Of a DNA stretch of 11,754 bases, positions 2,807 to 11,684 are shown one piece after another. The translations under genes and the position numbers were made by a program. The notes under the pieces are model-generated. The model was given only the letters and a program-made list of their open reading frames with translations, did not search any database and had not been told where the DNA came from. The stretch is taken from IMG/VR virus record IMGVR_UViG_2671181100_000003, positions 1 to 11,754 of that record; one strand, 5' to 3'. This DNA comes from a virus (taxonomy: Duplodnaviria > Heunggongvirae > Uroviricota > Caudoviricetes). The stretch's first letter is position 1, and each line of letters starts with the position of its first letter.

Positions 2807-3322
2807 GTGATCGCTGAATTAACGGCAGCAATGACGGCTATTCGTGAAATCGCCCAGATTGCAAAACTAATGAACGAGGCAAAAACTCAAGCTGAAGTAA
2901 ATGCGGCTATTGGTGAGCTGAACTCAAAGCTTGCGTCTATTCAGCGCGAATGCGTGTCTCTCGTTGAACTGCTGGGCTCTTATCAAGAAATAAATGCTTC
3001 TCTCAAAGCTAAAATTGCAGAATTCGAAAACTTTGAGGCTCAGACGGAAGGCTATATCCTTAACCAACTTGAGTCGGGTACTTTTGTATACTCGAAGGAG
3101 GTAATCGTGAACGGTGACAGCATAACCATGCATCTTTGCCCAAAATGTTTTGGACAAAAGATAGTATCGATACTTCAACCATTCCCGGTTAGCGAAGATG
3201 AGCTTTTTCATAAAAGCAGGTGCCTCCACTGTGAAAATAAGTTTCTGATGAATAAAAATCCAGATTACGTATCGCCTCCATCCATTGAGGAGTTGGCCAG
3301 AAAACTTAACGGCAATCTGTAG
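2807..3322 (+). CDS. Coiled-coil protein with C-terminal CxxC...CxxC zinc-ribbon (accessory gene in the immunity region, function unknown)
   Basis: ORF-track frame 2543..3322 trimmed to GTG 2807 (AAGAG 8 nt upstream) or ATG 2831. The N-terminal ~80 aa are heptad-like and A/E/K/L-rich; the C-terminus carries CPKCF and CLHCENK ~24 aa apart. GC is ~42% against ~52-55% in the replication genes. Convergent with the repressor, own terminator downstream. Confidence 0.55.
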   Translation: MIAELTAAMTAIREIAQIAKLMNEAKTQAEVNAAIGELNSKLASIQRECVSLVELLGSYQEINASLKAKIAEFENFEAQTEGYILNQLESGTFVYSKEVIVNGDSITMHLCPKCFGQKIVSILQPFPVSEDELFHKSRCLHCENKFLMNKNPDYVSPPSIEELARKLNGNL

Positions 3323-3465: not shown

Positions 3466-3553
3466 AAAATCTAACTTAACTTAGCTATTATGGCAAGAGA
3501 AAACACCAAACTTTTCTTAGTTCGGTGCCTTAGTTAGAGAAGAGAGGTCTTAG
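3466..3553 (-). promoter_or_regulatory. Candidate left operator/promoter (OL/PL-like): leftward promoter flanked by CTTAG half-sites
   Basis: On the minus strand: -35 TTGCCA (plus 3491-3496), 17-bp spacer, -10 TAGATT (plus 3468-3473). CTTAG occurs four times within 3480-3553 (3480, 3516, 3529, 3549), the same pentamer that forms the operators between the repressor and cro. Confidence 0.3.
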
Positions 3554-4176
3554 AGTTCGTATTGAACTCCTTTGACTACACCAATGATAAGGCAATTACC
3601 ATTGATAGGGATGTTGGGATACCGAGGATTTAATGGCACTAAAAACTTTTGAGGGCCATCGATGACTAATTTTTTTACTGTAGCTTCGTTTGTTCCATCA
3701 AGTCGAGCGATGACTATTTTTCCATGACGAGGTTCTGCATCTGGATCTACAATCACTGTTGCGCCTTCTGGTATTGTTGGGAGGCCATTAGGGTTAGTCA
3801 TGGAGTCACCTTTAACCTCTAATGCAAATGAGTTATCACCAACCTTTAATGATGTATCTACCCACTTGTCCACTTCACTAAACACTTCTGCTGCCCTGCA
3901 CTCAGTAAACTGCCCAGCCTGAACCCACGATATTACAGGAACTCTGCGCATGTTTGTGACGAGTTTGCCTTCAAACTCAGCACCATAAAGAATGTAATCT
4001 ATTGACGTATTGAAGAACTTCGCTAATTTCGAAAGTGCCTCCCCACCAGGGGTATTGATGTCTTTCTCCCAGTACCCCACAGCAACGTCGCTTACTCCAC
4101 AAAATTTACCCAATTCTTTCTGGGACGTTCTGGTAACTCTTCTCAGAGCTTTTATACGCTGACCAACCGTTTCCAT
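3550..4176 (-). CDS. Phage repressor, cI/LexA-type (N-terminal HTH + C-terminal S24 autopeptidase domain)
   Basis: 208 aa. N-terminal HTH (QKELGKFCGVSDVAVGYWEKD), candidate Ala-Gly cleavage site (VQAGQF), S24 catalytic motif GDSM and Lys in TVKKL. Divergent from a cro-like gene across an operator region. Confidence 0.9.
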   Translation of the reverse strand: METVGQRIKALRRVTRTSQKELGKFCGVSDVAVGYWEKDINTPGGEALSKLAKFFNTSIDYILYGAEFEGKLVTNMRRVPVISWVQAGQFTECRAAEVFSEVDKWVDTSLKVGDNSFALEVKGDSMTNPNGLPTIPEGATVIVDPDAEPRHGKIVIARLDGTNEATVKKLVIDGPQKFLVPLNPRYPNIPINGNCLIIGVVKGVQYEL

Positions 4177-5398: not shown

Positions 5399-5418
5399 AG
5401 GTCGGTCATGAGCACTAA
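5239..5418 (+). CDS. Small hypothetical protein (59 aa) from a TTG start; alternatively the C-terminal half of a frameshifted gene starting at 5060
   Basis: Not in the ORF track (no ATG). AAGGAG at 5225-5230, 8 nt before TTG 5239. Translation [59 protein letters not shown] is compositionally protein-like. Stop at 5416-5418 overlaps the O-like start. Confidence 0.3.
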
Positions 5419-6364
5419 ATTAACCGGCTATGTATGGGATGGTTGCGCTGCATCAGGCATGAAATTATCCAGCGTGGCAATTATGGCCCGCCTGGCTGAT
5501 TTCAGTAATGACGAAGGTGTGTGCTGGCCATCAATTGAAACCATTGCCCGCCAGATTGGCGCGGGGATGAGTACCGTCAGAACGGCTATCGCACGGCTGG
5601 AAGCAGAAGGCTGGTTAACGCGTAGGGCGCGTCGCCAGGGTAACCGCAATGCGTCGAATGTTTATCAGCTTAACGTTGCGAAGCTTCAGGCAGCGGCATT
5701 TTCTCAACTGTCAGATTCTGACCCGTCAAAATCTGACGCATCAAAATCTGACGCATCAAAATCTGACCCGTCAAAATTTGATGCGTCGAAATCTGGCAAA
5801 AAAGCGGGTTTTCACCCGTCAGAATCTGGTGGGGATCCGTCAGTAAAATCAAAACATGATCCGTCAGATAAAAAAACTTCTCGTCCGGACGCTTCGCAAC
5901 CGGACACGCAGACGGCTGAACAGGATTTTTTAACTCGCCATCCTGATGCGGTTGTATTCAGCCCTAAAAAGCGCCAGTGGGGGACGCAGGATGATTTGAC
6001 CTGCGCACAGTGGCTCTGGAAAAAAATCATCGCCCTGTACGAGCATGCCGCCGAATGTGACGGCGAGGTGGTTCGTCCCAAAGAACCGAACTGGACAGCC
6101 TGGGCAAACGAAATTCGCCTGATGTGTGTGCAGGATGGTCGTACTCATAAACAAATCTGCGAGATGTACAGCCGCGTCAGTCGCGATCCGTTCTGGTGCC
6201 GTAACGTGCTCAGCCCGTCGAAGCTGCGGGAAAAATGGGATGAGCTTTCCCTGCGCTTATCGCCGTCCGTCAGCACGTACACCGAAAAACGCGAAGACCC
6301 GTACTTCAAAGCCAGTTACGACAACGTGGACTACAGCCAGATCCCGGCAGGATTCAGGGGGTGA
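5408..6364 (+). CDS. Replication initiator, lambda O-like (N-terminal HTH DNA-binding domain, repeat linker, C-terminal domain)
   Basis: 318 aa, GAGGT 5 nt upstream. N-terminal HTH (SSVAIMARLADFSNDEGVCWPSIETIARQIGAGMSTVRTAIARLEAEGWL) is typical of phage replication initiators. An internal tandem-repeat block encodes (S/P)KSDA pentapeptides, like the iteron-encoded linker of lambda O. Position after cro/CII. Confidence 0.7.
   Translation: MSTKLTGYVWDGCAASGMKLSSVAIMARLADFSNDEGVCWPSIETIARQIGAGMSTVRTAIARLEAEGWLTRRARRQGNRNASNVYQLNVAKLQAAAFSQLSDSDPSKSDASKSDASKSDPSKFDASKSGKKAGFHPSESGGDPSVKSKHDPSDKKTSRPDASQPDTQTAEQDFLTRHPDAVVFSPKKRQWGTQDDLTCAQWLWKKIIALYEHAAECDGEVVRPKEPNWTAWANEIRLMCVQDGRTHKQICEMYSRVSRDPFWCRNVLSPSKLREKWDELSLRLSPSVSTYTEKREDPYFKASYDNVDYSQIPAGFRG
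5711..5800. repeat. Six tandem 15-bp repeats inside the O-like gene: candidate replication-origin iterons
   Basis: Units TCAGATTCTGACCCG / TCAAAATCTGACGCA (x2) / TCAAAATCTGACCCG / TCAAAATTTGATGCG / TCGAAATCTGGCAAA. Each junction forms the dyad CGTCA-AAATC-TGACG. Degenerate copies and an A-rich stretch follow to ~5880. Confidence 0.5.
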
Positions 6365-9381: not shown

Positions 9382-9398
9382 TTTGGTGGAGAAAGTTG

Positions 9399-9764
9399 AT
9401 GCGTGATATTCAGATGGTTCTGGAGCGTTGGGGAGCATGGGCGGCGAGTGATAGTTCTGGAGTAGACTATTCGCCTATAGCTGCTGGGTTTAAGGGGCTT
9501 CTTCCCTACACAAGCAAAACACGTCAGGCTTGTTCAGATAGTGATGCATTAATTATTGAAGGTTGTCTTGCTCGTCTAAAGCAAAAAAAGCCAGATGAGC
9601 ACTCGCTGCTTGTGGCACATTATTTATACAGAATATCCAAGCGTAAGATTGCAAAGGTGCGTGGAAAGGATGAAAAATTGGTACGCATAGAAATACAACT
9701 AGCCGAAGGATTTATTGATGGTTGCCTTTCAATGTTGGATGTTAACCTTGAAATGGACGCTTAG
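9399..9764 (+). CDS. Late-gene antiterminator Q (small Q family)
   Basis: ORF-track frame 9396..9764 trimmed to ATG 9399 (GGAG 7 nt upstream). The N-terminal motif DIQMVLERWGAWAA...DYSPIAAGFKGLLP matches my recollection of the small antitermination-Q family. Last gene of the rightward early operon. Confidence 0.7.
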   Translation: MRDIQMVLERWGAWAASDSSGVDYSPIAAGFKGLLPYTSKTRQACSDSDALIIEGCLARLKQKKPDEHSLLVAHYLYRISKRKIAKVRGKDEKLVRIEIQLAEGFIDGCLSMLDVNLEMDA

Positions 9765-9770
9765 GGTTGC

Positions 9771-9800
9771 ACAGGTTGGCCCCATATGAGGCCAACCTGT
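9771..9800. other. Perfect 11-bp inverted repeat (hairpin) between convergent Q and membrane-protein genes
   Basis: ACAGGTTGGCC (9771-9781) / GGCCAACCTGT (9790-9800) with an 8-nt loop. It starts 7 nt after the Q stop and abuts the membrane-protein stop codon (9800-9802). No adjacent U-tract on either strand, so not a canonical intrinsic terminator. Confidence 0.4.
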
Positions 9801-10261
9801 CACAAGTGGGGGAAGATTTTTCGTAACACTAACCAACACCTTCCGAAGGTATATAGCGAAATTATAAGGGAGGATAAGCCTAACAGTATGAATAGGAAAT
9901 CAATAGGTTTGCCCGCAACAATAACATCATCTGGTAGAAACATCGCTATCAATGGAAATATACATGCGACGATGAGAGTTAACCCTGTTGAAAGTAATCG
10001 ATTTACCAGAGTTGGTAACACGTTGTTTTGCTTAAGGGCATTAATTGCTCCTTCCTTATCGCTGTTTGCACTACTAAATATAGATATTGCAGCCAGAACA
10101 AAACCAAACAGGATGCCTGATATAGTCGAGAGCACCCCCGCTGTTGTGAGTACGTCAGCATGCTTCATCGGTTTAAACAGTTTTGTCGCTGCATAGGTCA
10201 ACAGAATCCAGAGGACGCATTTCCAGAGAAAAGTGGCTAATTCTCTCATTGTGTCCTCCAT
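9800..10261 (-). CDS. Small integral membrane protein, four predicted TM helices (second gene of the two-gene cassette)
   Basis: 153-aa ORF; the likely start is the second ATG at 10249 (GGAGG 5 nt upstream), giving 149 aa. Four hydrophobic segments (~residues 10-28, 37-63, 85-109, 120-140) with short loops and no soluble domain. Separated by ~20 nt from the upstream 313-aa gene. Confidence 0.6.
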   Translation of the reverse strand: MEDTMRELATFLWKCVLWILLTYAATKLFKPMKHADVLTTAGVLSTISGILFGFVLAAISIFSSANSDKEGAINALKQNNVLPTLVNRLLSTGLTLIVACIFPLIAMFLPDDVIVAGKPIDFLFILLGLSSLIISLYTFGRCWLVLRKIFPHL

Positions 10262-10270
10262 GCTTGGTTA

Positions 10271-11212
10271 TTAGTCTCTGCTAGCGAGCTCATACTGTGC
10301 AAGATAGTTCGCGTTATCAATTTTAGCAGATATCATCGCCGTTCTGATATCAGAATCGGATGGATAACCGCTTTTGACAATGATTGTCTTTGTACTGACC
10401 AATACTTGGTCAAGTAGACTTTTGGGCGTTCTATTGGATGGCTCTGTTACATCAATTTTTTTAATTTTTAGACCTCCAGAACCTTTTGGAAAAAGTTCAA
10501 GTAGTTCCTTAATAGCATCGGTGACAGAAGTTTTTAGATAGTTAAAACCTTGTTTTTTCGGGCGAATCCGACCTCGCATATTTAATCTTAGATGCGACCC
10601 GCCCATACCAACAACCATGTCAATAATTTCATTAGCTAAAGGGTTTTTAATCTTATAATTAGCTTTGTTAAAGTTTCTTGGAGCAGCAACTATAAGATCG
10701 AAACTACGTAGGATATTTCCGTCCTCAAGCAGTTCCTTCATGCTCTCTTGTTTCCAAATGGCTTCAAAAGTGACGCTTTTTAAATCAGTTTTGTTATACA
10801 AAATGAATGCCAGATCATTTACTTTGGGCCCTATATGGTTGAGGGTCATAGCTAATAAATCCGTTTCGTAGTAATAGATAAAATATGTTCTTTCAACTAC
10901 AGAATCTTTATCATTTAAAGGAATTGTTCTCTCACTACCTGTAGCATCCTCGATGAACGGTAGTAGGCATTCCCTTCTCCACGATACGTAACCAAAGTAA
11001 CATTGCAGTGTGGTATCTTTTTGAAGAATAACTAACTTTAACCCTCGATTTGGGGTGTCTGTTGTGTAAGTTATTGGAAAAGTTACAGTATCTGCTGTGG
11101 TCATTTGCTCAAAGGCTAGTTTTGCAGCAGATGTGCCATCTTTTTTGCTTCCATTACCAGTGAAAAAACCAACTCTCACTCGCCTAGTTTTATTCTTATT
11201 TTCTGTACTCAT
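10271..11212 (-). CDS. Uncharacterised 313-aa soluble protein (first gene of the two-gene cassette)
   Basis: Long ORF with no recognisable catalytic motif by eye (no Walker A, no clear nucleotidyltransferase GS...DxD). K/N/T-rich, GC ~35-42%. Opposite in orientation to all flanking phage genes. Confidence 0.65.
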   Translation of the reverse strand: MSTENKNKTRRVRVGFFTGNGSKKDGTSAAKLAFEQMTTADTVTFPITYTTDTPNRGLKLVILQKDTTLQCYFGYVSWRRECLLPFIEDATGSERTIPLNDKDSVVERTYFIYYYETDLLAMTLNHIGPKVNDLAFILYNKTDLKSVTFEAIWKQESMKELLEDGNILRSFDLIVAAPRNFNKANYKIKNPLANEIIDMVVGMGGSHLRLNMRGRIRPKKQGFNYLKTSVTDAIKELLELFPKGSGGLKIKKIDVTEPSNRTPKSLLDQVLVSTKTIIVKSGYPSDSDIRTAMISAKIDNANYLAQYELASRD

Positions 11213-11227
11213 TATCGATCCGAAATA

Positions 11228-11257
11228 ATTTTAGCAACCGTGTGAAAAATACAACAA
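11228..11257 (-). promoter_or_regulatory. Candidate promoter of the two-gene cassette
   Basis: Minus-strand -10 TAAAAT (plus 11228-11233) with -35 TTGTTG (plus 11252-11257, 18-bp spacer) or TTGTAT (15-bp spacer). Leader to the ATG would be under 15 nt and the RBS is weak, so confidence is low. Confidence 0.2.
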
Positions 11258-11334
11258 AAAAAAGAGGAAATCATTAGCGCGGTCCGCAAAAAACATTGTA
11301 ATCTGTTAAGAGTGGTTACTTCGCCACACAACTT

Positions 11335-11359
11335 AAACCCGCCGCTGAGCGGTTTTTTT
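11335..11359 (+). terminator. Hairpin plus T7 tract (intrinsic terminator-like) on the plus strand upstream of the small ORF at 11481
   Basis: AAACCCGCCGCTGAGCGGTTTTTTT: stem CCGC/GCGG (extendable with a bulge) then seven T. Would terminate plus-strand transcripts that have crossed the cassette antisense; could be a tR'-like site. Confidence 0.35.
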
Positions 11360-11409
11360 GTACCTGTAAACCTGGTGCAGTACAGTAAACACGCTGGTGG
11401 TCGTGAATA

Positions 11410-11436
11410 CTGGCTTTTTATCTTGCTGGCTTTTTA
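11410..11436. repeat. Direct repeat CTGGCTTTTTA x2 (16-bp period) upstream of the 11481 ORF
   Basis: Exact 11-bp copies at 11410-11420 and 11426-11436; candidate regulator binding sites or part of a late promoter/qut region. Confidence 0.3.
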
Positions 11437-11480
11437 GACAAGAGTTATTGGTATGTCATGTTAACCAGAAGGGAAAAAAC

Positions 11481-11684
11481 ATGCTAAAACAGCAAGATAT
11501 GACAGAAACCGCCGCCGCAGTCCTTCATTTCTTACCTGCTGACAAGTGGGTAACGCCACGCATGATGACGAGAACTACCGGAGTAAGCGAAGCCCGGTGC
11601 CAGTTAATACTGACTCAGTTAGTTCTGGCGGGTCTGGCGAAGGATAACGGCGGGTACGGGAATAAATTCAGACGCTGCCAGTAA
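11481..11684 (+). CDS. Small hypothetical protein (67 aa), possibly winged-helix DNA-binding
   Basis: ORF-track frame 11397..11684 trimmed to ATG 11481 (AAGGGA 6 nt upstream). Translation MLKQQDMTETAAAVLHFLPADKWVTPRMMTRTTGVSEARCQLILTQLVLAGLAKDNGG looks like a small winged-helix regulator. Confidence 0.45.
   Translation: MLKQQDMTETAAAVLHFLPADKWVTPRMMTRTTGVSEARCQLILTQLVLAGLAKDNGGYGNKFRRCQ

Follow-up and report, generated by a model that had tools for sequence, protein, structure and literature searches.

A probable, highly diverged RexAB-type exclusion cassette in a cargo slot beside antiterminator Q of a lambdoid prophage

Two adjacent minus-strand genes, A and B, located between the antiterminator gene Q and the late region of a lambdoid prophage, probably form a prophage-borne, highly diverged two-component exclusion system of the RexAB type. 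No abortive-infection system has been known for longer than RexAB. Our proposal draws directly on the gene pair itself, the selection acting on it, its movement as one unit and its location in a cargo hotspot, and also on the RexA fold seen in the predicted gene A model and a profile-level similarity of the two products to RexA and RexB.

The gene pair and its cargo slot

The window, by which we mean the entire 11,754-nucleotide stretch analysed, comprises the early and nin regions of the prophage and encodes a LexA/CI-like repressor, a cro-like gene, a replication gene, PerC, RusA, KilA-N, DUF968/HNH and Q; Rfam and tRNA scans of it came back empty. The cassette adjoins Q rather than the repressor gene (3550..4176, minus), which lies about 5.6 kb away, and its surroundings are organised as follows.

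9396..9764, plus: antiterminator Q gene (PF06530, E 7.7e-52), convergent with the cassette
9764..11267, unstranded: variable cargo slot, from blastn against L001, L010, L011, L012 and L015
9767..9805, minus: strong hairpin that separates Q from B, which converge here, and overlaps the B stop codon (-27.3 kcal/mol, z -4.74)
9800..10249, minus: gene B, 149 aa, 16.4 kDa, pI 9.4; four-helix membrane protein, RexB-like putative effector
10255..10259, minus: gene B Shine-Dalgarno sequence GGAGG, 5 nt ahead of ATG 10249, read from the sequence
10261, minus: alternative upstream ATG for gene B (ORF 9800..10261, 153 aa)
10271..11212, minus: gene A, 313 aa, 35 kDa, pI 9.3, basic; predicted cytoplasmic, RexA-fold, divergent DUF6731 relative
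11228..11257, minus: candidate cassette promoter TTGTTG-18 nt-TAAAAT, read from the sequence, with a very short leader
11268..11357, plus: conserved 90-nt segment, common to prophages whatever the cargo

The A stop and the B start are 21 nt apart, and ATG 10249 is almost certainly the true start of gene B, being preferred because GGAGG stands 5 nt upstream, the RefSeq annotation begins there and so do the alignments with every homologue. Four hydrophobic segments are found in the gene B product and zero in that of gene A, and the AlphaFold model of B is a four-helix bundle (helices 2-24, 30-63, 77-104 and 116-145; pLDDT 78). That the two ORFs are genuine genes shaped by purifying selection is seen against Citrobacter homologues of about 84% amino acid identity, where pN is about 0.09-0.10 and pS about 0.75 (saturated); furthermore, their length and synteny are kept among homologues down to about 20% identity. 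The GC content is 0.374 in gene A, 0.413 in gene B and 0.39 across the slot (9765-11267), as compared to 0.49 elsewhere in the window, with 0.52-0.60 for the nin genes.

Homology to sister prophages stops at 9757-9763, at the Q stop codon, and restarts at 11268-11278 (blastn). Within these limits the slot was compared with L010:3869-5285, L011:3869-5501, L012:3834-5289 and L065:1200-2500, and the other cargo seen includes a KAP NTPase (PADLOC PDC-S20, E 2e-177), an SDH/ClpP-like protease, a 308-aa uncharacterised protein, a 45%-identical allele of the type found in phage cdtI and, in L011, a PDC-S42 protein with its partner (289 + 140 aa). The latter pair is not Rex-like; it matches PDC-S42. 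Unrelated cargo occurs in prophages with about 85-92% identical Q, and the cargo seen is always on the minus strand, directed toward Q. The cassette itself is present at 99% identity or more in 73 of 5,426 complete E. coli genomes, invariably annotated as two hypothetical proteins, and is carried by about 16% (73/443) of the E. coli genomes in which megablast finds this Q gene at about 80% nucleotide identity or more. It is accordingly accessory cargo in a hotspot for candidate defence genes, as only this fraction of Q-matching genomes carries it, and we rejected its reading as a core phage gene given that slot content differs among prophages with near-identical flanks.

Much of this had been anticipated by a sequence-only reading of the same DNA, which described two tightly linked minus-strand ORFs with GGAGG upstream of the second, a low GC content, a soluble first protein followed by a four-TM second one, and accessory cargo at a hotspot between Q and the late genes; each of these points is borne out by the analyses above, and the cassette is not core content of the related phages. 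The same reading placed the pair opposite to every flanking gene, which holds for Q and the downstream genes but not for the early-left genes and the repressor, as these are also on the minus strand.

Several signals surround the cassette. The hairpin at 9767..9805 lies within cassette-specific DNA and is matched in stability by none of 200 shuffles; it has no U-tract and is a probable terminator or insulator. At the opposite end, the TTGTTG-18-TAAAAT element would be our guess for the cassette promoter; it was missed by a consensus scan and is not conserved in the Citrobacter homologue. The conserved segment beyond the slot holds a palindrome, GCGGTCCGC (11279-11287), a promoter-like TTAGCG-17-TGTAAT and a hairpin at 11341-11353 followed by T7, from which we infer that it probably contains the late promoter, the Q site and tR', with a transcript of about 50 nt. 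The first ORF after this segment (11397-11684, plus) encodes a 95-aa protein of the uncharacterised PHROG 331, with weak winged-helix (MarR/TrmB) and Ren-like similarities, and shorter versions of it are annotated in other records.

Profile and fold comparisons with RexA and RexB

Neither product has a named family in Pfam, NCBIfam or PADLOC, and both match only uncharacterised families in PHROGs. For the protein encoded by gene A in the window this includes Pfam DUF6731 (PF20505; gathering threshold 27 bits), which gives zero match. Its relatives at 44-62% identity, among them orf54 of phage cdtI, do exceed that threshold with 31-45 bits, and the cdtI-type allele carries the RefSeq label 'DUF6731 family protein'. 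A profile search with the A homologues further retrieved 168 relatives at E<=1e-3 among 1.84 billion cluster representatives, with DUF6731 annotation on those sampled. On this profile evidence A is a divergent DUF6731 relative that falls below the membership threshold: homologues and profile search connect it to the family despite the lack of a direct Pfam score. The sequence-only reading had seen no motif in the 313-aa protein, a view superseded by this family connection. Invariant residues of A are N125-H126-x-G128-P129-K130 and D133, within an N-H-x-G-P-K...D-L block. A literature search gave zero papers mentioning DUF6731. In two phage records, vB_EcoS-733R5 (ON470608.1, 30277-31179) and vB_EcoS-716R3 (ON470622.1, 15473-16375), a DUF6731 gene is labelled 'portal (connector) protein', a name that seems wrong for a RexA-like gene.

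The predicted model of A shows the RexA fold, with a split globular domain and an inserted dimerisation domain, and would thus place the protein in the RexA/RdgC/CHL4 fold class. Other members of this class, RdgC and the kinetochore proteins CHL4/IML3/CENP-N, differ from A in giving much lower scores, having no membrane partner and serving a different biology. At the profile level, hhalign aligned a 70-sequence DUF6731 profile with a RexA family profile, the latter including members from viral contigs at 23-30% identity, over 256 collinear columns (probability 78.5%, E 1.7e-5, score 44.4), as compared to control scores of 13.9 for the reversed profile and at most 21.2 for block-shuffled ones. 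This signal was obtained only with broader profiles on both sides: a narrow A profile against a single RexA sequence, and single-sequence comparisons, gave no significance in hhalign. A profile search against PDB sequences returned zero matches, and Foldseek against the PDB returned nothing significant.

A corresponding relationship is seen for gene B. We built a RexB family from membrane proteins encoded directly downstream of collected RexA homologues, and hhalign aligned the B family to it over 70 columns spanning TM2, the central loop and TM3 (probability 86.5%, E 4.6e-6, score 40.2), with the reversed and 60 shuffled controls all scoring 21.4 or less. Here too broader profiles were needed, as a B profile against a single RexB sequence was not significant in hhalign; HMM scores are about 19-23 bits. 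The partners in the B family have in common the TM2 sequence S-G-x-L-x-G-F and, after it, a K/R-x-x-G-Y loop, TM2 of B itself contains an invariant motif (T42, G45-V51), and a Pfam-confirmed RexB (in L061) contains the B-family motif SGTILGF. B is more conserved than A. Furthermore, the second-best match of the B model in the viral structure library BFVD is a 165-aa protein of phage Sbash (probability 1.00), which by its published length and topology is probably gp31, an experimentally validated RexB-like effector of 165 aa with four TM helices.

The curated models for RexA (PF15969) and RexB (PF15968) in Pfam, and their PADLOC counterparts, do detect the lambda proteins and give no match to A or B at E<=1. 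Identity of the pair to lambda RexA/RexB (PDB 8TWQ) is about 13-15%, and A is 34 residues longer than lambda RexA; protein sizes, pI and gene spacing nonetheless fit lambda rexA-rexB. The Rex layout tested, a soluble protein of about 280-370 aa followed by an adjacent, co-oriented 4-TM protein of about 140-180 aa in a prophage, is what the cassette displays, with two adjacent co-oriented prophage genes of 313 aa and then 149 aa with four helices. Overall, we judge a remote homology between the cassette and RexAB to be likely. The sequence-only reading had drawn a parallel to RexA/RexB, which profile and fold comparisons strengthen from analogy to likely remote homology, and had gone on to suggest a previously undescribed system, which we revise: as of January 2026 only five systems of the Rex-like kind were on record (PMC12894663), and the cassette is not categorically new, probably representing instead a divergent branch of this validated kind that is unrecognised in the literature searched and escapes the Rex models of Pfam and PADLOC.

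Relatives and spread of the pair

Among the loci inspected, which span Pectobacterium, Yersinia, a Vibrio phage record, metagenome and sequencing-run assemblies and a Pseudomonas-like prophage, some of them only about 20% identical, the gene directly downstream of the A homologue, often overlapping it, encodes a protein of about 132-150 aa that has four hydrophobic segments; the exceptions are L004 and L005, where no partner gene is called downstream. Phage cdtI has, in the same place, an allele with 45% (A) and 50% (B) identity, which 25 further E. coli genomes also carry. A genome-wide pattern scan for relatives yielded three loci only.

In every lambdoid homologue examined the cassette is adjoined by Q. 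The amino acid identities of Q, A and B are 83, 84 and 83% to the Citrobacter locus L066 and 61, 62 and 62% to the Yersinia locus L006, and this near-equal divergence of all three argues for their long-term linkage. It suggests that Q, A and B are transmitted together in these lineages, even if others have exchanged the slot content.

Outside this setting the pair is found in other types of element. In Vibrio phage 10N.286.54.F4_PE001 (PQ189356; L014:1389-2896), with A at 34% identity and B giving 99.5% in hhalign, it adjoins the integrase in a PM2-like (Vinavirales) prophage of 14.6 kb, and its presence there indicates that the module crosses unrelated virus realms. In a Mu-like element the A-B pair comes after Mor/GemA. 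In two Pseudomonas-like prophages (L069:6330-9297 and L023:493-2984) the order is CI(S24) repressor, small ORFs, DUF6731 and 4-TM gene, a lambda-like arrangement and the published layout of the P. putida RexABpp locus, with sequences that differ from the primer-derived termini of PP_5643/5644. The primer-derived PP_5643 termini (supplement of PMC12894663) had no match among the proteins and loci compared, nor in IMG/VR. Repressor adjacency is thus a trait of these distant members; the window cassette is neither adjacent to nor co-transcribed with the immunity repressor.

Proposed function and alternatives

By analogy with characterised systems, the most likely function of A and B is a Rex-type exclusion of other phages via a membrane effector. 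The pair would be expressed in the lysogen, A and B being translated from one transcript, with A a dimeric DNA-binding sensor and B a RexB-like four-helix inner-membrane protein. Upon infection by another phage A would interact with and activate B, as in lambda RexAB, Sbash gp30/31, CarolAnn gp44/43 and RexABpp, and activated B would compromise the membrane through depolarisation or leakage, so that growth stops and the infection is aborted, giving an anti-phage phenotype. As all slot cargo points toward Q, early-right operon read-through after induction would cross the cassette in antisense and may dampen it while its own prophage grows lytically. If true, such a switching off in the lytic cycle would amount to a built-in self-immunity.

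The systems used for this analogy differ from the cassette in several ways. The lambda rex genes belong to the cI/pRM operon, whereas the cassette lies between Q and the probable late promoter with its own candidate promoter region. RexABpp of P. putida prophage P1 (PP_5643/PP_5644) has experimentally established defence, DNA binding and RexB-dependent membrane damage (Sci Rep 2026, PMC12894663). Sbash gp30/gp31 and CarolAnn gp44/gp43 are, like the cassette, pairs of a soluble and a 4-TM gene, in their case expressed from the prophage; their soluble partners are larger (370-372 aa) and their hosts are Actinobacteria. The Sbash pair has a promoter to itself that is not near the repressor, and in this it resembles the window cassette, which also lacks repressor adjacency. 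The DUF6731 branch might use a different trigger or membrane mechanism than lambda Rex.

We regard it as unlikely that a Rex-like pair in this position mainly tunes the development of its own prophage, by stabilising the lytic switch or acting on late transcription, with exclusion a by-product or absent. There is precedent in the action of lambda RexA on the CI-Cro switch, and both the in-step divergence of Q, A and B and the abutting late-promoter-like segment would fit such a role. Against a developmental function stand the unrelated cargo, including PADLOC candidate defence genes, that fills the slot beside about 85-92% identical Q, the presence of the cassette in only about 16% of genomes with this Q family, and the occurrence of the pair apart from Q, next to an integrase in the PM2-like element and Mor/GemA in the Mu-like one. 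Assuming exclusion, the roles of the partners could be reversed, as in the Rex-like variant described for mycobacteriophage Butters gp30/gp31 (PMC12894663), with a toxic soluble A that the membrane protein B would sequester until infection. The sequence itself gives no sign of which partner is the effector; we find this arrangement very doubtful, since the membrane protein is the effector in four of the five characterised systems, and the higher conservation of B with its invariant TM2 motif fits a channel- or pore-like element.

The likeness to RexAB could, finally, be convergent or spurious, and the pair a superinfection-exclusion block to DNA entry, a lysis-timing accessory or a toxin-antitoxin-like module. 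In favour of this, small proteins with four TM helices are often met near lysis genes, the curated Rex models are silent on both proteins and the Foldseek search against the PDB was negative. We nonetheless consider it quite improbable, as A and B independently point each to its own Rex counterpart with controls, a validated RexB-like protein (the probable Sbash gp31) is among the top fold matches of B, the genes are outside and antisense to the late/lysis operon, and family scans matched neither protein to holin, Sie or toxin-antitoxin families. A role as holin or in lysis was rejected on the wrong strand, the location outside the late operon and the presence of the pair also beside integrase, repressor and Mor genes. 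Kiwa, which combines the 4-TM KwaA with KwaB (DUF4868), was likewise rejected, there being no DUF4868 or PADLOC match and the gene order being reversed.

Returning to the preferred reading of the cassette as a RexAB-type exclusion system, the link of DUF6731 and its 4-TM partner to RexA/RexB would suggest what some 170 gammaproteobacterial protein clusters do, with about 100 complete E. coli genomes among their carriers, in a RexAB branch that Pfam and PADLOC models overlook. It also names targets for mutagenesis: in B, the TM2 motif (invariant T42, G45, F48 and G49) and the K/R-x-x-G-Y of the central loop, where K73 and N75/N76 would be the analogues of R70/D73 in Sbash gp31; in A, the N-H-x-G-P-K...D-L block. 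The DNA from the Q stop codon to the probable late promoter in this lambdoid group is a defence-cargo hotspot that could be mined for further systems. More tentatively, and with a good deal of doubt, we entertain a broader picture in which DUF6731 and its 4-TM partner would make up a large unrecognised sister branch of RexAB, extending over lambdoid, Mu-like and non-tailed PM2-like prophages, and would come with a Q-convergent defence slot and an antisense switch-off for self-immunity.

Two further genes in the window merit mention. An ORF at 2828-3322 (plus), convergent with the repressor gene, encodes a 164-aa protein with a coiled-coil N-terminal half, two CxxC pairs and no family match, and could be another accessory gene of the immunity region. 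The replication-initiator-like protein encoded at 5408-6364 (plus) contains SKSDA/SKSDP-type pentapeptide repeats at residues ~100-130 (DPSKSDASKSDASKSDPSKFDASKS).
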